Below, piece by piece: positions 2,212 through 43,584 of a stretch of DNA of 64,000 bases. The notes under the pieces were generated by a model, which searched no databases, had not been told where the DNA came from, and saw only the letters and a program-made list of their open reading frames with translations. This DNA comes from Candidatus Vogelbacteria bacterium RIFOXYD1_FULL_46_19 (GTDB lineage: Bacteria; Patescibacteriota; Minisyncoccia; Phycocordibacterales; XYD1-FULL-46-19): positions 70,020 through 134,019 of the forward strand of contig MHTK01000002.1 of NCBI GenBank assembly GCA_001824825.1. The letters are read 5' to 3'. Within the stretch, counting starts at the first letter, position 1; each line of letters begins with the position of its first letter. A program made the translations under genes and the position numbers.

Positions 2212-2856
2212 TTAGGTTTTTACTGTTGGTACTCCTCGTTCGCCTGGGTTGAATATTTTAAAGTATAACTCAATCAATTCTTCTGTATTTAAACGAGCGG
2301 TTTTTACCCCTACTCGCCCCAGGCCGTCGGCTACCACTCCCAAGCGCTGTTCCAGTTGAACTTTATTATTTTGGAAATCTTCTTTGGTGGCGATTTTGGT
2401 GGTTTGTTGTTTGGATTTAGATAAGAAAGGTAGTTTAGACATTATAGTATCAGTGGTTTGAATAACTGATGGCTGATACGGGACGACAATAAAAAAGGTT
2501 TTTGTCATCACATTAGTAGCCTCGGTGAAAGTCTTGATAAAGTTCATATACTCGCGGGACTGAATTTTAATCAGTTCATTAACATGCTCCTTGGTGACCG
2601 CTTCTAAACTTGCTAAATAGGGCTGAATATCAAGCTTTTTTGACTGCAGATGAATTTGAATGGAAAAATCAAGCGAGTTTAAAAAATTTTGATACTGCAT
2701 AATAACCGCTTCTCGTTCGTCGGTGGACTTGAGAGCAAAGTTGATCGATGAGCCGATTAGTACTCCGCGATAGCTACCATCTTTTAAAATGACAATCCCG
2801 TCGCGAATTTCACGTAGGGCGACAAAATCTTGCGTTGGCTTTGCTTTAATGGCCAT
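2212..2856 (-). CDS. VirB4-family N-terminal domain encoded as separate 214-aa ORF (split gene or pseudogenised N-part)
   Basis: Sequence IRDGIVILKDGSYRGVLIGSSINFALKSTDEREAVIMQYQNFLNSLDFSIQI matches the characteristic N-terminus of Gram-positive VirB4 (TcpF/PrgJ/TraE type); ends at TAA 2212-2214, 3 nt before and in frame with ATG of 388..2208. Confidence 0.6.
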   Translation of the reverse strand: MAIKAKPTQDFVALREIRDGIVILKDGSYRGVLIGSSINFALKSTDEREAVIMQYQNFLNSLDFSIQIHLQSKKLDIQPYLASLEAVTKEHVNELIKIQSREYMNFIKTFTEATNVMTKTFFIVVPYQPSVIQTTDTIMSKLPFLSKSKQQTTKIATKEDFQNNKVQLEQRLGVVADGLGRVGVKTARLNTEELIELYFKIFNPGERGVPTVKT

Positions 2857-2858
2857 AG

Positions 2859-3257
2859 CTAATTGATATGTTCTTTAACATCTAAACTCCAAGACAACTG
2901 GTCTAACCGGCTCTCTGATATTTTTGGTAAGTCGATAGCGGCTTGGGCAACGACGGGTTTGGAGCGGGGTTGAGCGGTGGAACCTTTTTGCCAGATGTAT
3001 AGTTTGCTACCGAGGTAATATTTGAGCATTGACTGAATCACGTAAATTAACGAGCGGTTATTGAGTTTGTAGAAAGCGAGACCCAAGCCGCCGGCGATAG
3101 CTATGGCCATCGGCACCAAGGCGATATAAAGCGGTAACAAGACATAAAGTAAAAAGGCTACCGCCAGTCCCCCGACCACGAAAATAAACTGCGGAAATGA
3201 CAAGGGGCCAAAAATTTTATTTTCGACTTCGATAAATTGTGGCACTTGGAAGTTCAT
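2859..3257 (-). CDS. PrgI/VirB3-like two-transmembrane T4SS protein
   Basis: 132 aa, two adjacent TM helices, positioned immediately upstream of VirB4 as in Gram-positive T4SS loci. Confidence 0.55.
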   Translation of the reverse strand: MNFQVPQFIEVENKIFGPLSFPQFIFVVGGLAVAFLLYVLLPLYIALVPMAIAIAGGLGLAFYKLNNRSLIYVIQSMLKYYLGSKLYIWQKGSTAQPRSKPVVAQAAIDLPKISESRLDQLSWSLDVKEHIN

Positions 3258-3488: not shown

Positions 3489-3953
3489 TTACTCTACCGA
3501 TTCGCGATAGGGGTCGGCGTCAGCCAAGCGTGACGGAGCCGGAGGTAGGTTTACATCATCCGACTCCCCGGTTTCAAAAATAGATTGCATTTTTTGGTTA
3601 AAAATGTTTTGGCCGGGCTTGGCAACAGGTGTTTCTAGGGGAGGATTTTTTAAGTAATCGCGAACTTGAGCAAATATTTTAAGGTCAATTTCGTGGGCAA
3701 TATCATTGGCTTTGGTTTGATCAAGGTTTAAGGTGCGAGCCAAGCGGGCGGCAAACAAGTGAGGCCGGGTAAAGCCAAAGAGGACTAAACCGGTTTCATC
3801 GGCCACTTTCCCAATCTCGTCAATATGGAGCTGGTGCTGGTCGCCAATCGCTTTAATAATTTTTGCGGTATCAACCGACAAGACAGCGTCTTGGACGATA
3901 GCTGGTAGACTTTTGAAACGTTCTTGAATTTGTTCGTGGGTGTAATCGGACAT
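3489..3953 (-). CDS. hypothetical protein in T4SS-like operon
   Basis: 154-aa ORF, soluble, no recognisable motif; operonic position between VirB6-like and PrgI-like genes. Confidence 0.5.
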   Translation of the reverse strand: MSDYTHEQIQERFKSLPAIVQDAVLSVDTAKIIKAIGDQHQLHIDEIGKVADETGLVLFGFTRPHLFAARLARTLNLDQTKANDIAHEIDLKIFAQVRDYLKNPPLETPVAKPGQNIFNQKMQSIFETGESDDVNLPPAPSRLADADPYRESVE

Positions 3954-3961
3954 TAATTATA

Positions 3962-6562
3962 TTAGTTATAGGTTGTTTTTGGACCAAATCTATCAGGTTT
4001 TTGATAGTCACCCGCTCCAGCCGGGGTTACCACTTCTGGGGTTTTAGGGGCAGCTGGCTTAGGTGTAGCTCGGGTGGCTAGATACTCTTTTGTCTCACTA
4101 TTTCCGTGCGAGTCAATTGCTTTTTCAAGTTGACGCCAGTTATTAGCGCTCATGTTTCCACTTTTCTCTATTTGCTCCAAGTCTTTTGGAGTCACTTCTT
4201 TAACTATTTTTTCATTAGCGAGGATTTCGGGCTTGATAGCCGCTCGGTTCTTGTAGGTTAGTTTACCCATTTCCTCAATGATGGTCGTGGCGGTCTGGTC
4301 GTCTAGTGACTGTAAGTCGGTGGCGTGGTTGTTGATGGCTTCTATAGCAGTGGCCGTGTCGTCTTTAGCCGCTTGCTCCATTAAATCTTTTTGAGCCTTT
4401 TTGATTTTATGGTCTTTGTCGCCAGCTTGGCCTTTACGTAGGGCGCTTATAGCTTGTTTTAGACTCTCGTTTGGTCCCTTGTTAGCTTCGGTTTCAAATA
4501 TGGCTTTATCGGTGTCGGAGAGGGCTTCGTAAGCCAGTTTCTGGTAGTCTGCACTTAAGGCGGCAAAGTTCTTTAATTGTTCTTCATTGTTGGCCTCTTT
4601 TGTTACCGGCTTGCCATCTTTATCTTTTACTACGTTACCCTCGGCATCCTTAACTACCGTCTGTCTCAGTTCTTCCCGCAAGCGCTTGCCGAACTCCTCA
4701 TCAGCTTTTTCTCTCCTTTCTGGATCTTTAATTCCATTGCGCAGGGCTTTCATGTTTTCAGCTAGGGCTGGATTATCTTTAACGTTTTTGATTTCCAGAT
4801 CAGCTTTTTCTCGGTCACTTAGCTTCTCGTAATTCTTCTTGCGGTCTTCTTCATTTAGGTTACTCAAATATTCCGCTTTAAGTTTAGGATTACGCAATTG
4901 CCCTGCTATTTCTTCTTGGCGCTTTTGTCGTCTGTCTACGGTTTGAGTGTAGCCCCGGTCGGTACCGAAGCCATATCCAGCCACACCCGCCATTGCTTTA
5001 TTGGCTGCCCAGCCTATCTTTGGAGTTTTAGCTGTTAATTTTTTCATTCCATCTGAATTCTGAGCCTTCTTAGCAAGTATACCAATAGTGTTGCGTCCAG
5101 CTACACCAACAGCTCCTACAGTAGCGCCCCGTGCTGCCCACTTGGACAAACCAATTGCTTTGTTTGAAAAAGAGCTTCCTAGTTGACAGCCAACTTTCTG
5201 GGCAATTAACATTGAACCTAGCATTAAGCCGTTTAAGGTTAAAAAGGTAAAAATTTGTCCGGTCGGACCACTGGTGGTAATAGAATTAGAAGCTGCAGTA
5301 TTTAAATTTTTCATTATACCCAGTGTCACATACAAAAAAAACATAAATAGTGGGGCAAATAGCAGGTCACAGCGTAATCTGGTTGACCATAGGTTAAAAA
5401 CTTCTTTCAAGGGCGTGAAAGTATAGCCCAAAAAAGCTAAAGGTGAGGTCATGATTAAAAATAGGAGCGATACTCCTCGAATTAAAAACAAAAGAGAGGC
5501 TGCTAGAAGGGTAAATATGGTTATGGTTTGTAATATTAAAATCCCAATGTTTTTTACAAGTACCCCAGCAGTTAGCTTGAAATAGCCACTATTGTAGTCA
5601 TTGGGAGATTTAATTCCTTCAAAAAATGATAATTGATCTCTGAATGGTTGAGCGATACTTGGATCTTTATTGGGGTCATCTCCAATTTGTTGGTAAAAAG
5701 TCATGGCCACAATATTGGAGGCATCAATGGCAACTTTGGTTATAAAACCACTGAAATTAACCAGTAAGGCTATGACTATCACATTGACCAAGGTTTTTTT
5801 GGTGTTGACATTTGGTAGTTGTAAGATGGTTCCAATGGCAAGGTAAAGTAATATAAAAATAAAGAAAATGTTAGACAAGTCTCTGGCAACCGTCCATCCA
5901 ATATCAATTACCGACAAGTCTGTTACGTAATCCCTGAAGTCGGTGATAGTGGTTTTAACTATGTAAGCAAAAAGGGTATCAGCTAAACTAATTACCCAAG
6001 TGTAAAGCCACAGTAAAATACTAGATATGCCGTCTAAAATCCCTGCAAGACAGCCGTCCCAATTTGGATTAGTGCTGATAAGGTTGCAGTTGTAAACTTG
6101 CTGATCTCGTATGTTTTGAACTCTTTCACTGTAGGTGTTACTACTGGTTGTGCTGTCTTGAAGACGTTCCTCTCTAAGAGCAATTTGTTCTCTTAGTCTT
6201 TCAGCTTCCTGGGTGTTGTTATTATCTTCCGCAATTTGGGCGAGCGCATTATCTCTCTGAATAGTTAATCTTTGGATTTCTCTTCCTATTTCACCTATAG
6301 CCAAAATGTTGTCTTCTGCATCTCTATCCCCATCAATTCCAAGCCAATTTGTAAAAAAATCACTCCACCTTGTGGTTCCCCAGTCAGCCTGGCTTGCTGC
6401 TAATTCATCATATTGATTTTGTAGATTTGCTATATCTTCCTCAATTATTCTTACGAATTCCTCTTGGGATATTGGAGTTTGGGCATTTATTAATAGGGGT
6501 GATAGTAAAGTACATATCACTAAAGTAGAAATAATAATTTTTTTTAAGAATGAGATTCTCAT
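3962..6562 (-). CDS. VirB6/TrbL/TcpH-like polytopic membrane protein with long charged C-terminal tail
   Basis: 866 aa; N-terminal signal/TM, block of ~7-8 TM helices in aa ~180-470, then ~400-aa K/E/D-rich low-complexity tail; start overlaps upstream ORF by 4 nt. Confidence 0.65.
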   Translation of the reverse strand: MRISFLKKIIISTLVICTLLSPLLINAQTPISQEEFVRIIEEDIANLQNQYDELAASQADWGTTRWSDFFTNWLGIDGDRDAEDNILAIGEIGREIQRLTIQRDNALAQIAEDNNNTQEAERLREQIALREERLQDSTTSSNTYSERVQNIRDQQVYNCNLISTNPNWDGCLAGILDGISSILLWLYTWVISLADTLFAYIVKTTITDFRDYVTDLSVIDIGWTVARDLSNIFFIFILLYLAIGTILQLPNVNTKKTLVNVIVIALLVNFSGFITKVAIDASNIVAMTFYQQIGDDPNKDPSIAQPFRDQLSFFEGIKSPNDYNSGYFKLTAGVLVKNIGILILQTITIFTLLAASLLFLIRGVSLLFLIMTSPLAFLGYTFTPLKEVFNLWSTRLRCDLLFAPLFMFFLYVTLGIMKNLNTAASNSITTSGPTGQIFTFLTLNGLMLGSMLIAQKVGCQLGSSFSNKAIGLSKWAARGATVGAVGVAGRNTIGILAKKAQNSDGMKKLTAKTPKIGWAANKAMAGVAGYGFGTDRGYTQTVDRRQKRQEEIAGQLRNPKLKAEYLSNLNEEDRKKNYEKLSDREKADLEIKNVKDNPALAENMKALRNGIKDPERREKADEEFGKRLREELRQTVVKDAEGNVVKDKDGKPVTKEANNEEQLKNFAALSADYQKLAYEALSDTDKAIFETEANKGPNESLKQAISALRKGQAGDKDHKIKKAQKDLMEQAAKDDTATAIEAINNHATDLQSLDDQTATTIIEEMGKLTYKNRAAIKPEILANEKIVKEVTPKDLEQIEKSGNMSANNWRQLEKAIDSHGNSETKEYLATRATPKPAAPKTPEVVTPAGAGDYQKPDRFGPKTTYN

Positions 6563-34490: not shown

Positions 34491-34906
34491 AGGGCTATAG
34501 TAGCATAAAAGAGTTATTTTTGCAAGTAAACCGTACATAATTAGCTTAGGTAAAATAAAGGCCGATCCAGTTTGGGTATAGGGGAGGCTGGAGCGGCCTT
34601 ACTCATTGCTGTGCTGTGTAGACCTTTTTTGTCCGGTGTTAGGTGACTGGAAGGTATACGCTTTGAGTATTCCTATTTTACCTTTATTGGTTAGGCTTGT
34701 CAATCCCCCTCATATGGAATGATTCCGCTGACTGGTACCCCCAGGTTTCTCTGCGCTCAAAAGAGCAAAGCCATTCCATGTTTTTTTTGGGGGGGGTGTA
34801 CACCCCCCTGTAAATGTGCTCTAGGAGGGTCCTTAGAGTGGTAGTTTGTCTTGAAGTTGTAATATTGTGCGACTCTTTCTATACTGAATCAACAAAACTA
34901 CTAAAT

Positions 34907-35818
34907 ATGAAACTCATTGAACAACAGAAGCAAGAATTTCTCGACTACTTAGAGATTGAAAAGGGGCGGAGCTTGAAGACTCGCAGTAGTTATGATCGCT
35001 ATTTAAGCCTTTTTTTTAAGCAAACGAAAATCTCGTCCCCGACTGATATTGATGAGAATCTACTTAGAGAGTTTCGTTTGTGGTTGAATCGCCAGCCCGG
35101 TACGACCGGCACCTTGAAAAAAAATACCCAAAATTATTATTTAATTGCTCTTAGAACTTTTTTGAAGTACTTGGCGAGGCGGGGTGTTCCTTCCCTCTCG
35201 CCAGAGCGGATTGAACTGGCTAAAACGCCTGGTCGGGAGATTGATCTCTTAAATGAGGTGGAACTCGGCCGGCTACTTACTATGCCGGCCGACCAAGACG
35301 AAAAAAGTTTGAGAGATAAGGCTATTTTGGAGCTATTGTTTTCGACCGGCCTTCGGGTGTCCGAGTTAACCGGCTTAAACCGTGATTCCATTGACTTGTC
35401 TCGCGACGAGTTTAGTGTGCGAGGGAAGGGTGAAAAAGTGCGGCTGGTATTTTTGTCGCTCGACGCCAAAGAAGCTATTAAGACTTATTTAAAAAAACGA
35501 GTTGATATTGAAGAGGCTCTATTTGTGAGTTTAAAAAATAAAGTCGGTGATGCTCCGACTCGCCTCACTTCTCGTAGTGTGGAAAGAATAGTGAAGTTTT
35601 ACGCTACGAAGGCGGGTATTGGCAGTAAGGTTACCCCGCACACCATTAGGCATAGTTTTGCGACTGACCTCTTACAAAATGGGGCTGATATCCGCTCGGT
35701 GCAAGCTATGTTGGGCCACTCGAGCGTGGCCACTACCCAAATATATACTCACGTGACCGACAAGCACTTACGAGAGATTCATCAGAAATTTCACAATCGT
35801 AAAAATACTGGCTCTTAA
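34907..35818 (+). CDS. tyrosine site-specific recombinase, XerC/XerD family
   Basis: N-terminal FLDYLEIEKGRSLKTRSSYDRYL core-binding domain and C-terminal HTIRHSFATDLLQNGADIRSVQAMLGHSSVATTQIYTHV (R..H..R...Y); start at MKLIEQQKQ. Confidence 0.85.
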   Translation: MKLIEQQKQEFLDYLEIEKGRSLKTRSSYDRYLSLFFKQTKISSPTDIDENLLREFRLWLNRQPGTTGTLKKNTQNYYLIALRTFLKYLARRGVPSLSPERIELAKTPGREIDLLNEVELGRLLTMPADQDEKSLRDKAILELLFSTGLRVSELTGLNRDSIDLSRDEFSVRGKGEKVRLVFLSLDAKEAIKTYLKKRVDIEEALFVSLKNKVGDAPTRLTSRSVERIVKFYATKAGIGSKVTPHTIRHSFATDLLQNGADIRSVQAMLGHSSVATTQIYTHVTDKHLREIHQKFHNRKNTGS

Positions 35819-36139: not shown

Positions 36140-37612
36140 CTACTTGACACCGTGACGCTGACGAATTTTTTTTAGCTCCTTATTCTCGGTCTCACTCTTT
36201 TTTTCTTTACCTTGGGCGGCTAGTTTGGCTAATTCTTTATCCCCCAATTCATTAAGATCTTTAGCTCGGTTTAATAAGTATTCCTTGGTATTTTGGGTGG
36301 GCTCGTCGAGTACCTCTTCCAATAGAGCATGCAAAATTTGCCCGATTTGGGGACCAGGTTTCACGTGCAACTCGTTCATTAAGTCATTCCCGTCAATTTT
36401 TAGCATAGTGACCGAGGTGGGGCTACGCAAGGCCTCTTCAATCATCGATTCGTATTTTCTCAAGCGATAAGGGTGTTCCTTGGGCCGGCCCATACCGATT
36501 CGGTCGCTGGTGCGTAGCTTCATCAAGTCCCAGACATTGTTCTCCCCCACTTTGGCTATAATTCGGCGGACGGCTGACAAGGTAATTTGATCAACATCCA
36601 CAAAAAACATATGGTTTCTAACCAGTTTTTCCACCACCTCGGCAGTTTTAGACGGGTATTTTAGGTCGGCCATAATTTTCTGTACCAGTCGCGCTCCCAC
36701 TACCTCATGACCGTAAAAGGTCCAGTCATTTTTCTCTTTAATCCAGCGCCTGGTGGCTGGTTTACCAATGTCATGAAACAGAGCCGCTAGACGTAGGTGA
36801 AGGGGGAAGTCTCTCTCAGCGGCGTGTTGCAAAGCTCGGAGCGAGTGTTCCCAGACATCAAAGATATGATCCCCGTTTTGCTCAGTGCCGATTGCTGGTA
36901 CTAAGTCGGGTAAAACGTGCGGTAAAAGTTCAAGCTTGGAGATAAGCTGTAGACCCATCATTGGTCTTTTAGACATAATAATCTTGTTAAATTCTTCACG
37001 CAGTCTTTCTTTAGAAATCCGTCCGAGTAAGCCCGCCTCTGCCTCGATGGCTTGCTCAGTCACCGGGTCAATACTAAAGCCTAGCTCGGTAGCCAAGCGG
37101 ACAGCCCTAAGCAGGCGCAAGGCATCTTCGCGGAAGCGCTCGGTGGGTGAGCCGACGGTTTTGATGATCTTGTCCTTTATATCAGCTACTCCCCCAAACA
37201 GATCAATAAGTTGTCCTTTATCAAGATTATAGGCTAGGGCATTAATGGTGAAGTCGCGACGAGCTAAATCATCTTCTATCGATTCGGCAAAGTGGACTTG
37301 ATCTGGGTGGCGGTGGTCAGTGTACTCAGATTCAGTGCGGTATGGAGTAACCTCGACATTTTTTAAAGTTGGGTCATCGGTGTCCTCATTCACGATTGTG
37401 ACTGTGCCGAAGCGGTTTTCGTAAAAAGTCTTAGTAAATAAGGCCTCAATCTCAGAGGGAGTGGCTTTGGTAGTAATATCCCAGTCTTTAGGTTCGCGGT
37501 TCATTAGGCTGTCACGAACACAGCCTCCCACAATAAAAGCCTCAAAACCAGCATTTTCCAGGGTTTTGGTTATACGTGAAACTTCTTTTGGGACTGGTAA
37601 CGATATTTTCAT
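36140..37612 (-). CDS. cca: CCA-adding tRNA nucleotidyltransferase with HD domain
   Basis: GGCVRDSLM...DWDITT polymerase-beta motif, RRDFTINA, HD motif FHDIGK; start at MKISLP (ORF 5' extension overlaps tRNA-Arg). Confidence 0.85.
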   Translation of the reverse strand: MKISLPVPKEVSRITKTLENAGFEAFIVGGCVRDSLMNREPKDWDITTKATPSEIEALFTKTFYENRFGTVTIVNEDTDDPTLKNVEVTPYRTESEYTDHRHPDQVHFAESIEDDLARRDFTINALAYNLDKGQLIDLFGGVADIKDKIIKTVGSPTERFREDALRLLRAVRLATELGFSIDPVTEQAIEAEAGLLGRISKERLREEFNKIIMSKRPMMGLQLISKLELLPHVLPDLVPAIGTEQNGDHIFDVWEHSLRALQHAAERDFPLHLRLAALFHDIGKPATRRWIKEKNDWTFYGHEVVGARLVQKIMADLKYPSKTAEVVEKLVRNHMFFVDVDQITLSAVRRIIAKVGENNVWDLMKLRTSDRIGMGRPKEHPYRLRKYESMIEEALRSPTSVTMLKIDGNDLMNELHVKPGPQIGQILHALLEEVLDEPTQNTKEYLLNRAKDLNELGDKELAKLAAQGKEKKSETENKELKKIRQRHGVK

Positions 37613-37637
37613 AAAGAAACTAGTACTCCACTTGTGT

Positions 37638-37708
37638 GCTCTCGGAGGGACTCGAACCCCCAACGACGGTTCCGAAGACCGTTGTGATATCCATTTCACC
37701 ACGAGAGC
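37638..37708 (-). tRNA. tRNA-Arg (anticodon TCG)
   Basis: Manual fold: acceptor GCTCTCG/CGAGAGC, D stem GTGA/TCAC, anticodon stem ACGGT/ACCGT loop CTTCGGA, T arm GGGGG-TTCGAGT-CCCTC, discriminator A; no encoded CCA. Confidence 0.8.
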
Positions 37709-37790: not shown

Positions 37791-37989
37791 TGTGCGGGTA
37801 GGGAGAATCGGTCAGGAATATCTTGCCCTCCGTCGAGGACAAGATTTCACGACCCTGGCTCACCTGTTTTTCTTGCTAGAAAAACATAGTTCCGCCTTTC
37901 GATTCTCCACGCAAGTAAAGCAGTTTACTTGCTCATTCCGTCACTAAAACCACAAAAAACCAGGTTAAAACCTGGTTTTTTGTGGTTAG
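37791..37989 (-). repeat. tRNA-Gly trailer module copy A: terminator + ~150-nt structured core + 18-19-nt direct repeat of tRNA-Gly(GCC) 3' end
   Basis: Reverse complement of 43354..43555 is near-identical (150-nt core 100% identical); 37793-37810 tgcgggtagggagaatcg repeats tRNA 3' end at 37990-38007. Confidence 0.8.
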
Positions 37990-38060
37990 TGCGGGTAGGG
38001 AGAATCGAACTCCCGACTCGTCCTTGGCAAGGACGTGTTCTACCACTAAACCATACCCGC
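37990..38060 (-). tRNA. tRNA-Gly (anticodon GCC)
   Basis: Manual fold: acceptor GCGGGTA/TACCCGC, anticodon stem CGTCC/GGACG loop TTGCCAA, T arm GGGAG-TTCGATT-CTCCC, discriminator A. Confidence 0.8.
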
Positions 38061-38205
38061 TACTTTTTACTTCCCTAGTATAGCTAATTTATGGCGATAG
38101 TAAAGAAGTTTAAGCAAAATATGTTAACCTGTAAGTGTAAGGAAGCTTTAGCCCAGCAGTCTAATAATTATAAGGAAGGTATAAAATATATAATTCTTTT
38201 TATTT

Positions 38206-38742
38206 ATGAATAAATCCGTTGGTATAGTGGTAGCAGTGATTGTTTTACTCATATTGTTGGGTCTATGGGCGGCATTTAAAGAAAATGAGGAGCAAATCAT
38301 CCCAATAGACGACGATGACTCACCGGCTACCCAAGAGATAAGTCTGTTTTTTCTCAATGAAGACCGTTTTGCTGTGGGAACAGAGCCTTATGAGGATGGA
38401 GTCACTCGCTCTATTCCCGCCTCTAGCGAGGCTAAACAGGCGGTAATTAGCGCCCTTTACGCTGGACCAACAGCGGATGAAACCGACCAATCACTACGTA
38501 TGGTTTATAGCGAGTCGACGGGCGCCAGGGTAGACTTTGACGAAGCCACAGGCACTGCCTCGGTTTATTTAGAGAGTGGCTGTAATAGTGCTGGGGCGAC
38601 TTATACGGTGGCTAATTTAATAATCAGGAATCTAGAGCAGTTTTCAGACGTAAATCGGGTTATTATCTATGATCCGGAGGGTGAAACCTTAGGCTCTGAG
38701 ACAGATATTGGTAATTTGGTCCCCGCTTGTTTACAACCGTAG
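38206..38742 (+). CDS. secreted GerMN-like domain protein
   Basis: Signal/TM anchor, acidic linker, then pattern ISALYAGPT...ASVYLESGC...NRVIIYD reminiscent of GerMN (germination/sporulation lipoprotein-like) domain. Confidence 0.5.
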   Translation: MNKSVGIVVAVIVLLILLGLWAAFKENEEQIIPIDDDDSPATQEISLFFLNEDRFAVGTEPYEDGVTRSIPASSEAKQAVISALYAGPTADETDQSLRMVYSESTGARVDFDEATGTASVYLESGCNSAGATYTVANLIIRNLEQFSDVNRVIIYDPEGETLGSETDIGNLVPACLQP

Positions 38743-38797
38743 TTGGGCTGGCTTTTAGACTCAAGTGTCCCCTAGCTACCCCAACCGTGGCTTATAA

Positions 38798-38826
38798 ATA
38801 TCGCTTAGTTGAGCGATATTTTGTTA
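38798..38826 (+). terminator. putative terminator after GerMN-like gene
   Basis: atatcgct-tagttg-agcgatat hairpin followed by tttgtt. Confidence 0.45.
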
Positions 38827-39059
38827 AAAAAGTGGATAACCTTGGGGACAATGTGTATAACGGACAGTCTTTTTAAAGTAGAGTTTGTCTTTTTACAATG
38901 AGAGAATATTGAAATTATGTTGATAGATAAGGCTTTTACTGGAAAATAAAGGAAAATGGTTAATTCTCAAGAGAAAATCCTAATTTGGTTACATATGTAA
39001 CACTTTCTATAAAAGTTATACATGAAACTTTAACTTAAGGATGTGCTAAACTTTAGTTA

Positions 39060-39455
39060 ATGACGGCGAAAGCTCGATTGGGAGCCCTGGGGGAACAGGT
39101 AGCGGCTAAATATCTAAAGCAAGCCGGCTTTAAAGTGGTGGCACAAAATTACCGGAAACCCTGGGGAGAAATTGACCTAGTGGCTACTAAAGGAGGAAAT
39201 CTTCACTTTGTGGAAGTGAAAACAGTCACTAAAGCCGAGAATGTTTTACATGAAACAGGGGAGCAGGGTGATGATTATGAGCCGGCCGACAATATTCACC
39301 CCTGGAAGTTGAAGCGCCTGGCTCGGGCGATGGAAAGCTTTATGCTTGATCAGAACATTCCCGAAGAGGTGGACTATCAGTTGGATGCCATTTTGGTCTA
39401 CTTAAGCCCTAAGGAGCAGGTGCTTAAAATAGAGTATTTACCGGATATTTTTTAG
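39060..39455 (+). CDS. YraN/UPF0102 family endonuclease-like protein
   Basis: GALGEQVAAKYLKQAGFKVVAQNYRKPWGEIDLVA and FVEVKT motifs typical of UPF0102. Confidence 0.75.
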   Translation: MTAKARLGALGEQVAAKYLKQAGFKVVAQNYRKPWGEIDLVATKGGNLHFVEVKTVTKAENVLHETGEQGDDYEPADNIHPWKLKRLARAMESFMLDQNIPEEVDYQLDAILVYLSPKEQVLKIEYLPDIF

Positions 39456-39520
39456 TAAATTGGTCATAAAAGTGTTGGTTTTTTAAGAAGTTTCGTGTTA
39501 CGATGGGGGAGTTAAAAAAT

Positions 39521-39546
39521 GGGACGTGGTGTAACGGCTAACATTT
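39521..39546 (+). repeat. partial copy of tRNA-Pro 5' half (acceptor-5'/D-arm, 26 nt)
   Basis: gggacgtggtgtaacggctaacatt identical to positions 2-27 of tRNA-Pro at 39576..39648 but followed by sequence that cannot complete a cloverleaf. Confidence 0.7.
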
Positions 39547-39575
39547 TTGGTTTGCCTGTCCGCCAAAGCCAGAGC

Positions 39576-39648
39576 CGGGACGTGGTGTAACGGCTAACAT
39601 TCTCGGTTTGGGACCGAGCGATTCCGGGTTCGAATCCCGGCGTCCCGA
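39576..39648 (+). tRNA. tRNA-Pro (anticodon TGG)
   Basis: Manual fold: acceptor CGGGACG/CGTCCCG, D stem GTGT/ACAT, anticodon stem CTCGG/CCGAG loop TTTGGGA (G37), T arm CCGGG-TTCGAAT-CCCGG, discriminator A. Confidence 0.8.
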
Positions 39649-39669
39649 AAGGGGGCGATGGCAGGTGGG

Positions 39670-39707
39670 GGACCGAGCGATTCCGAGTTCGAATCTCGGC
39701 GTCCCGA
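39670..39707 (+). repeat. partial copy of tRNA-Pro 3' half (anticodon-stem 3' strand through discriminator, 38 nt) with compensatory T-stem substitutions
   Basis: ggaccgagcgattccgAgttcgaatcTcggcgtcccga vs tRNA ggaccgagcgattccgGgttcgaatcCcggcgtcccga; the two differences keep the T stem paired. Confidence 0.75.
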
Positions 39708-39757
39708 CAAAAAAACCACCAAAGACTCCGCTTAAGCGGGGTCTTTGGTGGTTTTAT
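39708..39757. terminator. strong bidirectional intrinsic terminator after tRNA-Pro cluster
   Basis: A7 - accaccaaagactccgc ttaa gcggggtctttggtggt - T4; 17-bp stem. Confidence 0.7.
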
Positions 39758-39925
39758 AAAACTAGTTCGATCAAATCCAACGAAGCTAAATACACTTTTC
39801 GTGTTCATAAAATAAGTACCCGCATTATTTATTGATTGACAAACTGGCTTTTATTGAGCAGGCTAATCAATAGTATTGTTGTGTTCTAGTGTTATTGTAA
39901 TATAGTCAACGAAGGAGGATTTCTG

Positions 39926-40342
39926 ATGAAACGTGAATTTAGCCTCTTGTTGCTAGTGGTGGTGGTTACGTTGGTGGTCGGCTGTCCCACGACAGTGCCG
40001 GGGGAGCGAGAATACTGGATCACGATCGAAAACCACACTGACATGGAGCTGACAGAGTTGTATATTAGCCCCTGCGGTGAAAGTTACTGGGGCGACAACT
40101 GGCTAGTAGGATCCATCGATCCCTGGACGTCCCACTACGAGGTTCTATTTGCCAACCAGTGTTGGGATATCCGGATTGTGTCGGAGTATGGAAACACAAT
40201 GACGACTCAGTTGTTTTTAGACTCCGACTACCTGATTCCTGTCTACCAAAGCAAGTCGGGTCAGTTGCTCGGAGAGAGCGAGGAAGCCTACTGGGAAGAT
40301 GGTGATTTTCTCTTAAAAGAATATCCACCACCCACCGAGTAA
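39926..40342 (+). CDS. small secreted lipoprotein-like protein
   Basis: Signal peptide with LVVGC lipobox-like motif; W/Y/E-rich mature part, 4 Cys. Confidence 0.5.
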   Translation: MKREFSLLLLVVVVTLVVGCPTTVPGEREYWITIENHTDMELTELYISPCGESYWGDNWLVGSIDPWTSHYEVLFANQCWDIRIVSEYGNTMTTQLFLDSDYLIPVYQSKSGQLLGESEEAYWEDGDFLLKEYPPPTE

Positions 40343-40531
40343 CCAGTGCTCGAATCGTTTGCCGTCCCTATCAACAGTAGGGGCGGCACTTCATTTCCGG
40401 AGTTTTTTGATTTCATAGTCAACTTAATATCTCGAGTAAAATTTTTAACTTTTTATCTTGACAGGTTTTTATTAATAATGGACAATGCCCAGCAGATTTA
40501 GTAGTGGTTACACAACTGGGAGGAGACTATA

Positions 40532-41284
40532 ATGCCAAAGCCCAAGTGGAGCGACTTCTGTTTTTTGTTCGTGTTTGGGGCGTCAATGGCTAGCTTGTGT
40601 TTGGTGGAGGCTTACTTAGACGGGTCAGCTTTAAAGCTCGATGTGATTCTCGGCGTCGTTATCGGAGTGCTTGTTACGGTGGTCTACACCGGATTCCGTT
40701 GGTTTGATTGGGACAGGCGAAACGAGGCCATGGTCGAGATCTTACGTTATCATCCGAATGATATCGAAGTCTTTCTCGGGCGGTGGGGTGTGCGGGTGAC
40801 GGCGCAAACCTTCGTCTGTGATATGGCGTTGTTTCGTCAGCATTCGGCCAAATATCTCGGCGCGGTGTTAGCTAAGCTCCTGGAGTATAAGCTTGACCGT
40901 AATGGCTGTCGGCCCGACTACCGCTATAGTGGTCAGTCAGCCTACACCGACTTGGTGCGGATGGCGGTGGTAGCTTACGATCAAGCTAGTCTGCCTAAAG
41001 GCTTTGTCACAGGTTTGAAAAATTACTCGGCTTGCGCGGAATATGAGTTGAGACGAGCGGTAGCGGCGGTGGATTACTATGACCGCCTCACAAGTTGGAC
41101 GACAGAATTGCACGAAATGGAGGAGCGGTTTGCGGGTGAACGCGAGGAGGCAGTGCAAGCTTCTTTAACACCGGTTGCCACTGTTCGGTTGTGGAACTGG
41201 ACCTGGTGCAAGTTGAGCCGGTTGCGACCCACGATTTGGGCGCCCACTTGGACCGCCCCGGCGGTCAAAGAGGCAAAACTCTAA
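40532..41284 (+). CDS. hypothetical membrane-anchored protein in GC-rich patch
   Basis: 250 aa, two N-terminal hydrophobic segments; local GC clearly higher than flanks. Confidence 0.5.
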   Translation: MPKPKWSDFCFLFVFGASMASLCLVEAYLDGSALKLDVILGVVIGVLVTVVYTGFRWFDWDRRNEAMVEILRYHPNDIEVFLGRWGVRVTAQTFVCDMALFRQHSAKYLGAVLAKLLEYKLDRNGCRPDYRYSGQSAYTDLVRMAVVAYDQASLPKGFVTGLKNYSACAEYELRRAVAAVDYYDRLTSWTTELHEMEERFAGEREEAVQASLTPVATVRLWNWTWCKLSRLRPTIWAPTWTAPAVKEAKL

Positions 41285-41405
41285 ACAGATATCCGGTGCC
41301 TCCTTTGAAATTTCTCAAGGGAAGCACCGGTTTTTTGATGCGGGTAATAATATTGACAAAACGCTTAAATTTGTTATAATATAAGAAGATTAAAAAAGGG
41401 GAGGA

Positions 41406-41699
41406 ATGAATATGACTTGGGAGCGCGTTTTTAATTTTTTGGCGGCGGCAGTGACTTTTGTCTGGCGCGAGCTCTTGGGTCCCGTTGTCACCGGCTTGGT
41501 TCGGGGCGCTGGCGAGGGCTTACGAGCGGTGGCCCGGCGACTCGTCCCGCCAGTGGCCGTGGTCGGCCTCTTGGTCCTCTGGTACCGGACCAACCCGGAG
41601 AGTCTGGCCGACTCAATCGGTCTCGTGGTTTTCTTGGGCCTCTTGGCCTGGGTTGGTCGCGAGTGGTTCCGGGCGGCCTTCTCCGGGCGAAGGCGATGA
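41406..41699 (+). CDS. hypothetical small membrane protein in GC-rich patch
   Basis: 97 aa, two TM segments, Arg-rich C-terminus; very GC-rich codons. Confidence 0.4.
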   Translation: MNMTWERVFNFLAAAVTFVWRELLGPVVTGLVRGAGEGLRAVARRLVPPVAVVGLLVLWYRTNPESLADSIGLVVFLGLLAWVGREWFRAAFSGRRR

Positions 41700-41924
41700 G
41701 GGTGTTTCGAGCCGAGGGAAATCTCCTTCGGCTCTTATTTTATACACTTTTATATACAGACAAGTTCTAGCTGATTGACTTTTTTACTGTTTCTGTTATA
41801 CTAGACAGCGTGCGTGTAAATATCTCAAAAAGTTTTCTCTCCAGGTGTATACAAACGCGAGGGAGCAGAGATCAGTATGAGGGGTCGTTACTTCGCATAT
41901 GTTAATAAGTTAAATTGTATACAC

Positions 41925-42191
41925 ATGGCTAAGAAGTTATACGTTGGTGGTTTGCCTTACTCTACCACTGACAGTGAACTCCAGGAGGCTTTTGCTCAGG
42001 CCGGTGCAGTTTCTTCGGCAACCATCATCATGGACCGAATGACTGGCCGTTCCAAGGGCTTTGGTTTCGTTGAGTTTGAAAACGATGGCGACGCTGACAA
42101 AGCGATCGACATGTGGAATGGCAAAGACTTTGGTGGACGGAATCTAACCGTCAACGAAGCTCGCCCGCTCGAAGAGCGACCTCGCCGCTAA
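41925..42191 (+). CDS. RRM-domain RNA-binding protein
   Basis: RNP2 KLYVGGLPY and RNP1 KGFGFVEF motifs; start at MAKKLYV. Confidence 0.85.
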   Translation: MAKKLYVGGLPYSTTDSELQEAFAQAGAVSSATIIMDRMTGRSKGFGFVEFENDGDADKAIDMWNGKDFGGRNLTVNEARPLEERPRR

Positions 42192-42217
42192 CCGTAAGGT
42201 TACGACTGGTTTCTACC

Positions 42218-42246
42218 AAAAAAACCGCCCCAAGGGCGGTTTTTTG
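42218..42246 (+). terminator. intrinsic terminator after RRM gene
   Basis: A7 - ccgcccc aag gggcgg - T7. Confidence 0.7.
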
Positions 42247-42346
42247 TTTTAGGTTGATTTAGATGTTTTTATAAAAATATTAAAGCCGAAGTTACAGTGG
42301 TGTGTGCAACTTCGGCTTTACGAACAGAAACCTCCCCCGCGATATG

Positions 42347-42664
42347 TCATTTTTCCGACCTTCCATGGTGTTGGTGTATCTCCCACGTGTGCGTGATGGC
42401 CGCCTTGGCCCCGCTCCAAATCATGGTGGCCACGATAATTTGAGGCGGATTTTTAGGATTAGTTGGAACAAGTATCCGAAGTTCCTCACTTTGCAGTTTG
42501 GGATACACATCGGAGTTAAATCTGAGAGTGATGCTGGCGCCGTCTGGATTGTGGGAAATCTCAGAGACAACACCTCTATGTCTCGGGGCCACAGTTCCTC
42601 TGGCCGCGTTTATTATTTTGTCATCTAGCGACAAGTTGCGCACTTCAAGCAACACTAGGATCAC
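42347..42664 (-). CDS. hypothetical protein
   Basis: 105-aa ORF more protein-like than overlapping + strand ORF; no motif recognised. Confidence 0.3.
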   Translation of the reverse strand: MILVLLEVRNLSLDDKIINAARGTVAPRHRGVVSEISHNPDGASITLRFNSDVYPKLQSEELRILVPTNPKNPPQIIVATMIWSGAKAAITHTWEIHQHHGRSEK

Positions 42665-42806
42665 CTCCTTTCTGGTGCGGTGGAAATGGGTTTAGTTTCG
42701 ATCACAAAGAACAGATACCCTCATTTTAATAGGGTCGGAATTTATGTCAATGTCAACAATTCCCGTAAGGATGGCTCTCTTCTTTTGGTCGTGATAAAAT
42801 TTATCA

Positions 42807-43220
42807 ATGCCAATTATATTTTTGCTGGTAATTTTAGTGGTCGCGGTGGTGGGTGGGGTGACCAGTGGGTATATAAAGTATCACCGCCGACACGGAAAAA
42901 AATTAGAATGCGCTATTACTACCGATTGTGAGCAGTTATTTTCCAGTTCTTACGAGGCTTGGCGGGGGATAGATAATGAAAAGCTTGGTTTATGGTTTTT
43001 TGGCTTAGTGATTGCTTTTGCGGTCCTTGGGGCGGTGGTAGGGGTTTATTGGTGGCTTAAGGTAGGTTTGCTCTTGGTGACCATGGCTGGAGCCGGGTAT
43101 GGAATTTATTTAATCCACGCCCAAATTAGAGTGATTAAGCACTGGTGCACTTGGTGTTTGGTGCCGACCGTTTCGGCGGTAATCATTCTCTTGGCGGTGT
43201 TGGGGTTACTGGCAGCTTAA
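42807..43220 (+). CDS. VKOR-like (vitamin K epoxide reductase family) membrane thiol oxidoreductase
   Basis: 4 TM helices; loop CAITTDC...SSSYEAW and in-membrane CTWC redox motif. Confidence 0.5.
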   Translation: MPIIFLLVILVVAVVGGVTSGYIKYHRRHGKKLECAITTDCEQLFSSSYEAWRGIDNEKLGLWFFGLVIAFAVLGAVVGVYWWLKVGLLLVTMAGAGYGIYLIHAQIRVIKHWCTWCLVPTVSAVIILLAVLGLLAA

Positions 43221-43282
43221 ATTTTCAGATTGAAACGGCCGAGCAATTTTGCTAGTATGCCTGGTGTTACTCTGTAACATAT

Positions 43283-43353
43283 GCGGGATTAGTTAAATGG
43301 TATAATATCAGTTTTCCAAACTGAGGTTGGGAGTTCGATTCTCCCATCCCGCA
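43283..43353 (+). tRNA. tRNA-Gly (anticodon TCC)
   Basis: Manual fold: acceptor GCGGGAT/ATCCCGC, D stem GTTA/TAAT, anticodon stem TCAGT/ACTGA loop TTTCCAA, T arm GGGAG-TTCGATT-CTCCC, discriminator A. Confidence 0.75.
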
Positions 43354-43555
43354 CAAACCACAAAAGACCGGATTTTAACCTGGTCTTTTTTTGGTTTTAG
43401 TGACGGAATGAGCAAGTAAACTGCTTTACTTGCGTGGAGAATCGAAAGGCGGAACTATGTTTTTCTAGCAAGAAAAACAGGTGAGCCAGGGTCGTGAAAT
43501 CTTGTCCTCGACGGAGGGCAAGATATTCCTGACCGATTCTCCCATCCCGCACAAA
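43354..43555 (+). repeat. tRNA-Gly trailer module copy B: terminator + ~150-nt structured core + 22-nt direct repeat of tRNA-Gly(TCC) 3' end
   Basis: 43534-43555 cgattctcccatcccgcacaaa = 43336-43357; core identical to reverse complement of 37811-37960. Confidence 0.8.
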
Positions 43556-43584
43556 AATTTACCCACCAGACGTGATCTGGTGGG

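Follow-up and report, generated by a model that had tools for sequence, protein, structure and literature searches.

In tRNA-targeting integrative elements, which use tyrosine-integrase att sites, the inserted DNA is bordered by a repeated tRNA 3' end in direct orientation that begins at the T-loop and extends slightly beyond the discriminator; the tRNA is left intact and presence among relatives is patchy. The T-loop is reportedly a classic sublocation for tRNA-targeting integrases. Self-splicing group I introns, found in the anticodon loop of bacterial tRNA and the T-loop of tmRNA, are structured RNAs that interrupt tRNA-like genes, and their P1/P10 pairings and internal guide sequence complement both sides of the junction. 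In Patescibacteria they are frequent in tRNAs, usually without a homing endonuclease, and tmRNA is known to carry introns in its T-loop (PMC13011429). The tRNA-like minihelix RNAs (the tRNA-like domain of tmRNA, the precursors of 4.5S RNA and phage C4 RNA, bacterial YrlA and mascRNA) contain a helix equivalent to the acceptor stem plus T-stem, a discriminator and often a 3' CCA, and are co-transcribed with a tRNA or resemble one. REP/BIME, ERIC, Correia, RPE and other MITE-like elements are 100–200 nt long, intergenic, hairpin-forming and multicopy per genome, and can mediate rearrangements. Inversions by homologous recombination between identical inverted copies, such as rRNA operons or IS copies, leave both orientations in natural populations and contigs that break at the repeat. 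The locus described here shares these features with each of the systems listed.

The window (the whole 64,000 nt stretch analysed, from Candidatus Vogelbacteria) contains two tRNA-Gly genes that face each other. Behind each lie a hairpin, a core that is the same in both places and a copy of that tRNA's own 3' end. This layout was recognized in a preliminary description made from the sequence alone, and was confirmed using ARAGORN, Rfam and a repeat search. From the comparisons below, both modules appear to be copies of a widespread and apparently undescribed family of structured RNA elements located just 3' of tRNA genes in Patescibacteria. The features of the locus are as follows.

37792..37810, minus strand: distal sense copy S2 of module 1, the 3' end of tRNA-Gly(GCC), 19 nt.
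37811..37897, minus: three-way-junction core of module 1, 100 % identical to the core of module 2.
37898..37944, minus: strand A of module 1, with the same sequence as in module 2 (seen by direct reading).
37945..37988, minus: palindromic hairpin after tRNA-Gly(GCC), a 19 bp perfect stem (37948-37966/37969-37987) then a T-run.
37990..38060, minus (start 37989/37990): tRNA-Gly(GCC), by ARAGORN and Rfam; its 3' part, 37990-38007, is the proximal copy S1.
38077..38104, minus: promoter-like site 5' of tRNA-Gly(GCC), a consensus match only.
37959..43385, no strand: 5427 nt segment between the identical arms, seen in both orientations on contigs from other samples.
43230..43258, plus: promoter-like site 5' of tRNA-Gly(TCC), TTGAAA-17-TAGTAT, TG extended, a consensus match only.
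43283..43353, plus (end 43353/4): tRNA-Gly(TCC), by ARAGORN and Rfam; positions 56-73 (43336-43353) are the proximal copy S1.
43355..43399, plus: palindromic terminator-like hairpin after tRNA-Gly(TCC), stem 43362-43389 plus T-run.
43400..43446, plus: strand A of module 2 (read from the sequence and the fold; relatives show the same layout).
43400-43410, plus: within strand A, imperfect antisense of the acceptor 3' strand, GTGACGGAATG.
43412-43433, plus: within strand A, inserted hairpin A, loop AACUGCUU.
43436-43446, plus: within strand A, antisense of the T-stem 3' strand and the entire T-loop, GGAGAATCGAA.
43447..43533, plus: three-way-junction core of module 2, AGGCGGA ... GAGCCAGGGUCGUG ... 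CCUGAC, conserved.
43534..43555, plus: distal sense copy S2 of module 2, tRNA-Gly(TCC) positions 56-73 plus CAAA, the direct repeat of the preliminary description.

The repeat search of the window found a 168 nt inverted repeat (37791-37958 and 43386-43553, 98 % complementary, 5427 nt between the arms), and its arms differ at just 2 nt, the AT/TA dinucleotide that distinguishes the acceptor stems of the two tRNAs. The direct repeats are exact (37792-37810 with 37989-38007, 19 nt; 43534-43555 with 43336-43357, 22 nt), and each derives, as had been proposed, from the 3' end of its own tRNA. The preliminary description missed that the 5' part of each module, strand A, repeats the tRNA 3' end in antisense, which makes the direct repeat one side of a helix. 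Because both modules have the same strand A, the AUG in module 1 pairs with the CAU of the TCC-type repeat and not with the CUA of its own repeat. A palindromic hairpin with a T-run does follow each tRNA, but the terminator scan flagged that of tRNA-Gly(TCC) as terminator-like and left that of tRNA-Gly(GCC) unflagged. The stem of the former begins directly 3' of the discriminator and runs on into strand A. In a scan of both modules, no promoter-like site was found between tRNA and module. A 50 nt core probe matched only these two places in the window, where no match was expected by chance, and a covariance model likewise found both (37792-37908, 91.1 bits; 43436-43552, 91.7 bits) and none further. 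The module by itself is predicted to fold stably (−70.9 kcal/mol, z = −7.5), with A:S2 pairing closing the core; in this predicted P1 the discriminator and position +1 are also paired, which differs from an acceptor end. The original list of enclosed genes holds, with Pfam matches to Germane (weak), UPF0102/YraN, RRM_1 and VKOR, plus a tRNA-Pro.

The idea of a family of miniature tRNA-associated elements was borne out, with more than 150 copies in Candidatus Vogelbacteria and other Patescibacteria, but the specificity for tRNA-Gly was not. Among the core matches in genome loci, 22/24 lie 1–85 nt downstream of a same-strand tRNA. A degenerate pattern matched at least 120 metagenome contigs and no viral contig; among the matches listed, 95 of 122 cores are within 250 nt downstream of a same-strand tRNA, representing at least 38 anticodons, and some of the remaining cores sit 3' of apparent tmRNA 3' ends. 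The layout is fixed: tRNA, usually a terminator hairpin, strand A, the three-way-junction core and S2. No family in Rfam 15 matched the element, and a literature search found no description of one. Using nhmmer, diverged homologues were found at the syntenic site in related species, among them L019 (81 % identity), which retains the module at the orthologous site even though its RNase Y is just 84 % identical; neutral intergenic DNA is unalignable between species in which the module is conserved. Distribution is nevertheless patchy. There are empty sites, and in a close relative the core following a given tRNA is of another type; in the related locus L021, tRNA-Gly(GCC) has no module and tRNA-Gly(TCC) has another core type. 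Decayed copies (L047, L076, L078) and orphan modules with no neighbouring tRNA but intact minihelices (L099, a stand-alone module with a full minihelix, and L195) were also found. Young copies have fresh 37–57 nt flanking duplications, from C56 through the terminator, and tandem arrays; L134 and L172 duplicate trailer and terminator too. Elsewhere, paralogues within a genome are usually 65–80 % identical and mostly old, with no recent burst seen.

The relationship of S2 to the tRNA is close. In 44 of 95 modules, S2 is identical to tRNA positions 56-73 at 18/18 nucleotides, and in L064 three paralogues each match their own tRNA. Strand A is complementary to tRNA positions 54-67, and it always complements the whole T-loop of the proximal copy plus the trailer. 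Its antisense copy spans the T-loop and the 3' end and reaches into the trailer, so that A prolongs the terminator palindrome. Complementarity of A to the acceptor is more variable: among the 80 modules with perfect S2 it reaches at least 7/8 in just 11, S2 matching the tRNA nonetheless, and in 47 there is no meaningful anti-acceptor strand, so that no acceptor-like stem can form within the module, whereas L089, L098 and L076 have perfect anti-acceptor strands. S2 often has an encoded CCA behind it; the CCA is present at the distal copy only in 13 modules and at the proximal copy only in none. In L019, S2 tracked a change in the tRNA acceptor and A did not. In its encoded CCA and its co-variation with the tRNA, S2 behaves like a real tRNA 3' end, and the direct repeat would then be a built-in, maintained part of an RNA rather than an integrase footprint.

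The core is about 90 nt long and asymmetric, with conserved unpaired nucleotides. In nine sequences, 15 of 29 core pairs showed compensatory changes. In 132 distinct sequences, double changes occurred at all 29 pairs, 94.4 % of cells were paired compared with 69.1 % in shuffles, and the covariation score was 0.597, a value reached by 0/500 shuffles (0.164 shuffled; slid controls 0.06–0.09). G.U pairs are conserved, in 123 of the 132 sequences at one pair and in 51 at another, which assigns the structure to the tRNA-sense strand. The modules differ from REP/BIME-type elements in these G.U pairs and in the asymmetry and conserved unpaired nucleotides of the core, in the strict position and strand relative to tRNA genes, in flanks copied from the host tRNA and in having no terminal inverted repeats of their own.

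We think it somewhat better than an even chance that the modules are structured RNA elements appended to tRNA-like 3' ends, which act as an optional, intron-like insertion and whose two paralogues in the window recombine and were homogenised. Transcription that stops at the hairpin would give an ordinary tRNA. On read-through, A and the hairpin would sequester the proximal 3' end and the 5' acceptor and T-stem strands of the tRNA would pair with S2 instead, to give a cloverleaf with a 130–200 nt T-loop insertion between positions 55 and 56. Strand A would span the exon junction like an internal guide, and the element would amount to an insertion with its own spare 3' end and terminator. Alternatively, tRNA-processing enzymes might release A-core-S2 as a small RNA capped by a tRNA minihelix. 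In the minimum-free-energy structure predicted for the window from tRNA through S2, nucleotides 1-7 pair with S2. Of 88 read-through transcripts modelled, 87 have the proximal 3' end sequestered by A and the acceptor and T stems closed with S2, a thermodynamic prediction that follows in part from the choice of modules with both A and S2. Against this reading, co-transcriptional folding would favour the native tRNA first, and the RNA may be rare, because the hairpin resembles a terminator that is efficient in both directions and the module has no promoter-like site ahead of it. If the insertion were removed, the product would be identical to the short form, leaving no evident benefit. The existence of orphan modules also counts against it, and the matching of A and S2 to each new tRNA is left unexplained. 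The resemblance to group I introns is also limited: the Rfam group I model is unmatched, the core consists of a plain three-way junction, the 5' junction has no U.G, omega-G is absent, and the 'intron' starts with a full copy of the 3' exon and a terminator, so that the tRNA would not need splicing.

Patchiness and decayed copies likewise count against the insertion reading, and fresh duplications and tandem arrays fit a selfish or unstable element as well as they fit a host RNA. A selfish, RNA-structure-dependent element, an intron- or ribozyme-like T-loop parasite with no host function, is the most serious alternative, though we consider it on the whole unlikely. It would spread among tRNA genes by using the conserved T-loop sequence TTCGA either as its target or for microhomology, and be tolerated because a replacement 3' end and terminator come with it. 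In its favour, every tRNA type can carry the element, the junction is type-specific (55/56 in types A and C, about 60/61 in type B) and core boundaries coincide with the T-loop TCGA/CGA. Also consistent with it are the young copies and tandem arrays, the decayed copies, the patchy distribution with turnover of core types, the modelled cover of the exon junction by A, and the frequency of group I introns in Patescibacteria tRNAs and of T-loop introns in tmRNA (PMC13011429). However, the mostly old, diverged paralogues do not suggest recent bursts, no ribozyme family in Rfam matched, and the core is far below the size of a group I core. Nor does this reading offer a mechanism for re-templating A and S1/S2 from each new tRNA, and the minihelices of orphan modules are intact.

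It is more doubtful that the modules are independent small RNA genes. Here the closing helix of A-core-S2, by imitating an acceptor/T-stem minihelix, would let RNase P, RNase Z and the CCA-adding enzyme excise this RNA from its co-transcript with the tRNA, and the excised RNA would act in trans as a tRNA-type-specific mimic (decoy, primer or aminoacylatable handle), pairing of S2 with the tRNA body being irrelevant. RNase P is known to accept minihelices, 4.5S RNA and tmRNA precursors as substrates. The stable predicted fold of the module alone, the perfect anti-acceptor strands in three loci, the stand-alone module in L099 and the CCA encoded 3' of S2 point in this direction. However, the 47 modules that cannot form an acceptor-like stem argue against it, complementarity of A to the proximal T-loop and trailer would be needless in a stand-alone RNA, and P1 does not end like an acceptor. 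The modules differ from known minihelix RNAs in having five extra base pairs and a three-way junction in place of the T-loop, in the missing 5' acceptor strand of most members and in a helix sequence that copies the neighbouring tRNA, whatever its identity.

The preliminary description had proposed that a tyrosine integrase placed miniature non-autonomous elements, or larger ones of which scars remain, at the tRNA 3' end, with the 19–22 nt repeat as an attL/attR duplication. We regard this as very unlikely. The extent of the repeat, relatives with empty sites, a Xer-type recombinase gene about 2 kb from module 1 (34814-35818) and the commoner CCA at the distal copy, expected if that were the displaced original end, are in its favour. 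However, a search of the 6 kb downstream of every tRNA in the window and in 80 related loci found no larger element flanked by repeats, and no integrase belongs to the modules. At the AT/TA dinucleotide each repeat agrees with its own tRNA, which is impossible from a single attP, and at least 38 tRNA species are followed by the same core, with flanks matched to them. At the distal junction the T-stem 5' strand is missing, and with it the dyad of an att core; strand A is left unexplained; and RNA-type covariation with conserved G.U pairs, conservation at an orthologous site across species and the lack of matches in viral contigs all disfavour a target-site duplication.

That the modules are functionless by-products of replication, sense-antisense-sense triplications (tandem inversion duplications) that arose when the replication template switched at two palindromes (the terminator hairpin and the T-loop TCGA) and whose junction was filled later, is scarcely credible, because although the D - rc(D) - D architecture has junctions exactly there and L134 and L172 duplicate trailer and terminator, this accounts neither for a conserved, covarying core at hundreds of loci, nor for conservation between species amid unalignable intergenic DNA, nor for the CCA asymmetry; template switching is insufficient as a full explanation, but may be the origin of the flanks.

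Returning to the optional insertion and its recombining paralogues, the window's two modules look like paralogues at two tRNA-Gly genes homogenised by gene conversion, since the cores are 100 % identical, yet the shared strand A fits the TCC-type repeat only. Conversion would have run from the TCC copy to the GCC copy, and such conversion among long-standing paralogues accounts better for the core identity than two recent insertions would. The suggestion that the inverted identity could support inversion also gained ground. In other samples, L008 (VKOR, tRNA-Gly(TCC), module, tRNA-Arg, CCA enzyme) and L005 (NUDIX, TCC-type repeat, core, GCC hairpin, tRNA-Gly(GCC)) each show one of the two reciprocal junctions that inversion would produce, on short contigs, one at 1.5x coverage, assembled across the 168 nt repeat. 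Unlike inversions between rRNA operons or IS copies, the repeat is just 168 bp and no dedicated invertase is implied. A crossover inside the core swaps the distal repeats between the tRNAs, so that in the inverted form the repeat mismatches its tRNA at 2 nt, as in L005. By these junctions, the inverted module pair appears to flip the enclosed 5.4 kb by recombination.

The window contains four tRNA genes, each located by both ARAGORN and Rfam, and none encodes CCA. A repeat search found the inverted and direct repeats. The element that follows tRNA-Gly(GCC) on the minus strand is referred to as module 1, and the one that follows tRNA-Gly(TCC) on the plus strand as module 2. Related genome loci and metagenome contigs compared with the window are denoted by L numbers.

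Genes for tRNAs in the window and repeats of the two modules.
37636–37708, minus strand: tRNA-Arg(TCG)
37989–38060, minus strand: tRNA-Gly(GCC)
39576–39648, plus strand: tRNA-Pro(TGG)
43283–43354, plus strand: tRNA-Gly(TCC)
37791–37958 and 43386–43553: inverted arms, 168 nt, 98 % complementary, separated by a 5427-nt spacer
37792–37810, identical to 37989–38007: direct repeat of module 1, exact
43534–43555, identical to 43336–43357: direct repeat of module 2, exact

The two tRNA-Gly genes face each other. Each has on its 3′ side a long palindrome that forms a hairpin and ends in a T-run, then some 150 nt common to both loci and a copy of the 3′ end of that tRNA. A 50-nt probe matched the window in two places only, both of them in the modules, where none was expected by chance. 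The anatomy given in the preliminary description, namely facing tRNA-Gly genes each with a hairpin, an identical core and a repeat of their own 3′ end, is thus borne out. The only two mismatches between the 168-nt arms are the AT/TA that distinguishes the acceptor stems of the two tRNA-Gly. Promoter-like sites at the two tRNA-Gly loci were found only upstream of the tRNAs, and the hairpin after the tRNA has the appearance of a good terminator. Coding potential in the 180-nt modules is limited to ORFs of 51 aa on the antisense strand, mirrored in both copies and rejected as artefacts. Among the neighbouring genes, that for the CCA-adding enzyme (36140–37612, minus strand) is directly downstream of tRNA-Arg and module 1. 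A gene for a XerC/D-like tyrosine recombinase (34814–35818, plus strand; Phage_int_SAM_1 and Phage_integrase domains) lies some 2 kb from module 1, with the S15 gene on one side and that for the CCA-adding enzyme on the other.

The module folds at −70.9 kcal/mol (z = −7.5 relative to shuffled controls). In the predicted fold, the 3′ repeat (CGAUUCUCC-CAU-CCCGCAC) pairs with GGAGAAUCG and GUGACGGAAUG in the 5′ part of the module, with three hairpins between the paired ends. It follows that the 5′ strand, here called A, copies the tRNA 3′ end in antisense; it contains the full T-loop complement (AAUCGAA) and continues via the hairpin palindrome into the complement of the tRNA trailer. The proximal and distal sense copies of the tRNA 3′ end are called S1 and S2.

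The RNase Y of the window is at most 84 % identical to those of species representatives, the best match being labelled Candidatus Vogelbacteria (Patescibacteria), and an exact 50-mer of the module had no match in species-representative genomes. A search with nhmmer of 80 loci from related species found diverged homologues of the module, one of them at the syntenic site in L019 (81 % identity over 201 nt). In the genome loci, 22 of 24 core matches have a same-strand tRNA 1–85 nt upstream and the remaining two are near contig ends. Several core types share one flanking layout there. Type A, the type in the window, and type C form a single family under one covariance model, R1, and type B differs in sequence. 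R1 found 24 copies in the window and genome loci, including the two in the window, which score 91–92 bits, and 134 copies in the 558 kb of metagenome loci listed, with up to 6 per contig. A degenerate type-A pattern matched at least 120 metagenome contigs and no viral contigs, and a 24-mer of the module was likewise not found in viral contigs.

Among the metagenome matches listed, 95 of 122 cores lie no more than 250 nt downstream of a same-strand tRNA, and these tRNAs have at least 38 different anticodons, with almost every amino acid represented. On inspection, several of the others follow apparent tmRNA 3′ ends, and a few are orphans (L099 and L195).

Apparent tmRNA hosts, found by inspection, on the strand of the module.
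L100, approximately 5780–6140
L112, approximately 2700–3016
L150, approximately 3600–3922
L157, approximately 1150–1496

Each appears to include a tag-like coding sequence ending ...ALAFA*, a T-arm and a ...CUCCAC(C)A 3′ end, to which A is perfectly complementary. The range of hosts does not allow the specificity for tRNA-Gly 3′ ends suggested initially; most cores follow tRNAs, some lie behind apparent tmRNAs and a few are orphans. Both window copies are placed as is usual in the family: they share the strand of a tRNA-like 3′ end and begin at most about 250 nt beyond it, with A the reverse complement of positions 54–65 or beyond and S2 a copy of 56–73. A copy of the tRNA's own 3′ end within about 450 nt downstream was found for 26 of 136 tRNAs in related loci, or for 32 of 140 with a stricter criterion and the window included, numbers that cover nested tRNA-in-tRNA genes, one tandem tRNA gene and other core types as well as A-core-S2 modules. 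The tRNAs concerned include Gly, Pro, Arg and others. A full-text literature search found no description of a tRNA-trailing A-core-S2 element, and the interpretation of the modules as a new family of tRNA-trailing structured RNA elements is supported.

The flanks track the host tRNA. In 95 modules, A is typically complementary to 10–14 of the 14 nucleotides at tRNA positions 54–67, and in 44 of them S2 is identical to positions 56–73 at 18 of 18 nucleotides. In L064, three paralogous modules after Gly-GCC, Gly-TCC and Arg-TCG each have the stems of their own tRNA. The acceptor of tRNA-Gly(TCC) has AT in the window and TA in L019, and S2 matches the tRNA in each species, whereas the A strand of L019 is still of the AU type. 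Among the 80 modules with a perfect S2, anti-acceptor complementarity in A reaches at least 7 of 8 in only 11 and is 5 of 8 or less in 47. The acceptor part of S2 is thus usually without a partner inside the module, yet it is identical to the tRNA. Of the same 80 modules, 25 encode CCA after the distal copy and 12 after the proximal one; 13 have it only distally and none only proximally. Inspection of the tRNA-Gly(TCC) list indicated that tRNAs with a terminator hairpin directly 3′ generally lack CCA, an absence that fits RNase Z logic. It also implies that S2 is handled as the true 3′ end of a tRNA would be where no hairpin adjoins it. About half of the differences between S2 and the tRNA preserve pairing, but pairing with A and pairing with the tRNA 5′ strand are not separable in these, and nested tRNA-Pro cases contaminate the set.

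RNAalifold predicted a three-way junction for nine cores, with compensatory changes in 15 of 29 pairs. Among 132 distinct sequences, 94.4 % of cells form a standard pair (69.1 % when shuffled) and all 29 pairs have changed on both sides (shuffled mean, 20.3). The covariation score is 0.597, compared with 0.164 for shuffled alignments, none of 500 reaching the observed value, and 0.06–0.09 for slid partners; the alignment was fitted to the model, which somewhat inflates these measures, but the gap to the slid controls is very large even so. Two core pairs are G.U in 123 and 51 of the 132 sequences and would read A.C on the opposite strand, which assigns the structure to the tRNA-sense strand. 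The substitution pattern indicates that the RNA structure of the core is under selection. Both window copies have the three-way-junction pattern ..TCGAA-NGNC-GGA..GAG-GNC-NGGGUCG..GUGAC-CGA.. and the covarying helices.

The CGGA/GAG internal loop fits a K-turn on the non-bulged strand only. A hammerhead-like junction (GAAA and CUGAC-CGA) was considered and rejected, as it has an extra nucleotide, C3 is unconserved (G in most members) and no Rfam match supports it. A hairpin inserted in the antisense strand, hairpin A, is present in the window (43412–43433 and 37911–37932) and in L048, L047, L076, L099 and L201. Its stem covaries and its loop, AACUGCUU, is conserved; the core hairpin loops are often (C)AGCA(G). 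The two kinds of loop may form a kissing-loop tertiary contact (UGCU/AGCA).

In the minimum-free-energy fold of tRNA-Gly(TCC) through S2 (43283–43560), A and the hairpin sequester the proximal 3′ end, with all seven nucleotides of the T-loop, and the tRNA 5′ acceptor strand and T-stem 5′ strand are paired with S2. The same arrangement, with A sequestering S1 and S2 closing the tRNA, is predicted for 87 of 88 family members, whatever the type of tRNA or core, a thermodynamic prediction that follows in part from the selection criteria used. The long form would be a cloverleaf with 130–200 nt inserted at the 55/56 junction (near 60/61 in type B), and A would lie across the insertion junction like an internal guide. 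Such a form would account for the complementarity of A to the whole T-loop and trailer, for the fixed T-loop start of S2, for the co-variation of S2 with the tRNA even where A does not co-vary, and for the frequent CCA on S2. Given the terminator-like hairpin and promoter-like sites only upstream of the tRNAs, it would be a minority product. Among the readings considered, we favour an optional T-loop insertion, because it alone would explain A, S2, CCA and the junction positions jointly. It is possible, but on balance doubtful, that the elements constitute a new class of intervening sequence in the tRNA and tmRNA genes of bacteria. This would be a small structured RNA in the T-loop at 55/56, with A as internal guide over the exon junction and a decoy 3′ exon and terminator, possibly a new ribozyme or a substrate of a hypothetical bacterial tRNA-splicing pathway, so that one gene would yield the tRNA either via termination or via read-through and excision.

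The elements may serve the host, through alternative 3′-end formation or as a small RNA capped by a minihelix, or they may be intron-like parasites that are harmless because they carry a spare 3′ end. A tRNA-like minihelix, of the kind that RNase P and the CCA-adding enzyme use as substrate, would have an acceptor-like stem and a free discriminator (and CCA). Such a stem is present in some members (L089, L098 and L099), whereas in the window it is imperfect and pairing covers the discriminator, and the anti-acceptor strand of A is absent (5 of 8 or less) in the 47 of 80 members already mentioned. In a group I intron, an internal guide would pair with both exon ends (P1/P10). Strand A is complementary to tRNA positions 54–64 or beyond, spanning the 55/56 junction, but the base opposite U55 is an A and not a G. 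Group I introns have a conserved P3–P9 core, whereas the core here is approximately 90 nt with three helices. There was no RF00028 match in the window even at E≤10, and none at the gathering threshold in six related loci.

Target-site duplication by a tyrosine integrase, as first proposed for the modules, fails on several counts. No integrase gene is found inside the 180-nt modules, and no larger repeat-flanked elements were found up to 6 kb downstream of any tRNA in the window and 80 related loci. Both repeats match their own tRNA at the AT/TA and are not an identity block from one attP. The distal junction, CCTGAC|CGATT, lacks the T-stem 5′ arm and the att-core dyad expected around a 7-nt overlap. 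The antisense copy and the covariation of the core also speak against it, and a single integrase att reading does not fit flanks that match each of dozens of tRNAs. A likeness to ZTP, SRP RNA or RNase P was dismissed for lack of Rfam support: searches with 4227 models (including self-cleaving ribozymes, riboswitches, tmRNA, SRP RNA, RNase P RNA and 6S RNA) gave only tRNA matches at the gathering threshold in the window and six related loci, and the sub-threshold matches at E≤10 over the window modules were hairpin noise.

Nested tRNA genes were also observed. In the window (39520–39708, plus strand), a second tRNA-Pro, with an intact 5′ half (39521–39554) and an intact 3′ half (39664–39707), carries the complete tRNA-Pro(TGG) in its anticodon loop, and the short flanks of the inner gene pair with each other in a helix that joins the outer halves. 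Further nests are in L042 (19825–20620) and L027 (11597–11740). The three in L042 are two Pro and one Arg in the D-loop, with outer acceptor stems compensated relative to the inner (CGGGCTG/CAGCCCG versus CGGGATG/CATCCCG). The insertions in L042 have common conserved boundaries, CCC... and ...GGGUGAA. The outer genes look functional, which would require a route for excision and joining. This arrangement hints that bacteria may have working tRNAs that are split or carry introns; in the literature searched, such genes were found for archaea and a red alga only. The nested tRNAs strengthen the case for unusual handling of disrupted tRNA genes in these bacteria.

A 277-kb groundwater contig matches the window at 99.995 % over the 20.5 kb compared, and contigs with identical proteins from other samples often end inside a module. 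Contig L008 (JGI 3300003358) reads VKOR, tRNA-Gly(TCC), hairpin 2, core, GCC-type repeat, tRNA-Arg and CCA-adding enzyme, and L005 (ERZ5996431, 1.5× coverage) reads NUDIX, TCC-type repeat, core, hairpin 1 and tRNA-Gly(GCC). These are the reciprocal junctions of an inverted arrangement, and L001 and L016 have the window orientation. It is therefore likely, in line with the possibility first raised from the inverted identity, that the 5.4-kb segment inverts by recombination within the core, judging from short contigs assembled across a 168-nt repeat. The points of crossover fall inside the 168-bp identity, which is what homologous recombination would produce. A programmed inversion system would have a dedicated invertase, short specific inverted sites and a regulatory effect of the flip; the gene for the Xer-type recombinase is nearby. 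As each tRNA moves together with its promoter-like site, inversion would not shift promoters relative to genes; it would place tRNA-Gly(TCC) and its module upstream of the CCA-adding enzyme operon. In L005, the anticodon region of tRNA-Gly(GCC) (about 890; window about 38024) reads ...CCTTAGCAA rather than CCTTGGCAA as in the window, either a sequencing error at this coverage or a strain variant that changes the anticodon.

Cores do not cluster by genome, the nearest neighbour being in the same locus for only 8 of 57, and cluster weakly by anticodon (8 of 84, 3 % expected by chance); they are too short for a reliable tree. Within-genome paralogues, with identities mostly of 65–85 %, appear mostly old, which makes the 100 % identity of the window cores exceptional. 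The A strand common to both window modules fits only the TCC-type repeat (AUG/CAU versus CUA), and the most economical explanation is that the TCC copy recently converted the GCC copy. This agrees with the recombination that would also give rise to the inversion.

Relatives include decayed copies and, in L021, a type B module at tRNA-Gly(TCC) with no module at tRNA-Gly(GCC), hence both type turnover and an empty site of the kind sought. In the young copies of L134 and L172, A-core is flanked on either side by exact duplicates, 37–57 nt long, of the stretch from C56 through the terminator. The layout is D–rc(D)–core–D, with junctions at two palindromes, the terminator and the T-loop TCGA. Fold-back template switching at these palindromes is a candidate origin of the flanks and would leave the core unexplained. 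Modules can be dense, with up to 5–6 covariance-model matches per contig and about five within approximately 1.2 kb in L136; L110 and L108 have tandem arrays, and L019 has two different core types in series after one tRNA-Pro. Through such arrays, tRNA clusters acquire many short repeats, direct as well as inverted.

Dense or tandem modules.
L019, 20282–20604
L136, 7100–8330
L158, 1165–6857
L110, 860–4883

In practice, metagenome assemblies break at the elements, inversion polymorphisms probably arise from them, and annotation can mistake them for att sites of integrases or for fragments of tRNA pseudogenes. If the family is real, a large set of related structured RNAs, whose architecture has no described counterpart, follows a considerable fraction of the tRNA genes in a bacterial radiation that ranks among the largest. 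The family bears on whether there is a new small ribozyme or a bacterial pathway for tRNA splicing or alternative 3′-end formation, on tRNA maturation in organisms with minimal RNase sets, and on the spread of structured RNAs among tRNA genes. If the intervening-sequence reading were true, then, together with the nested tRNAs, Patescibacteria would process disrupted tRNA genes in ways that, until now, only archaea and a red alga are known to use.
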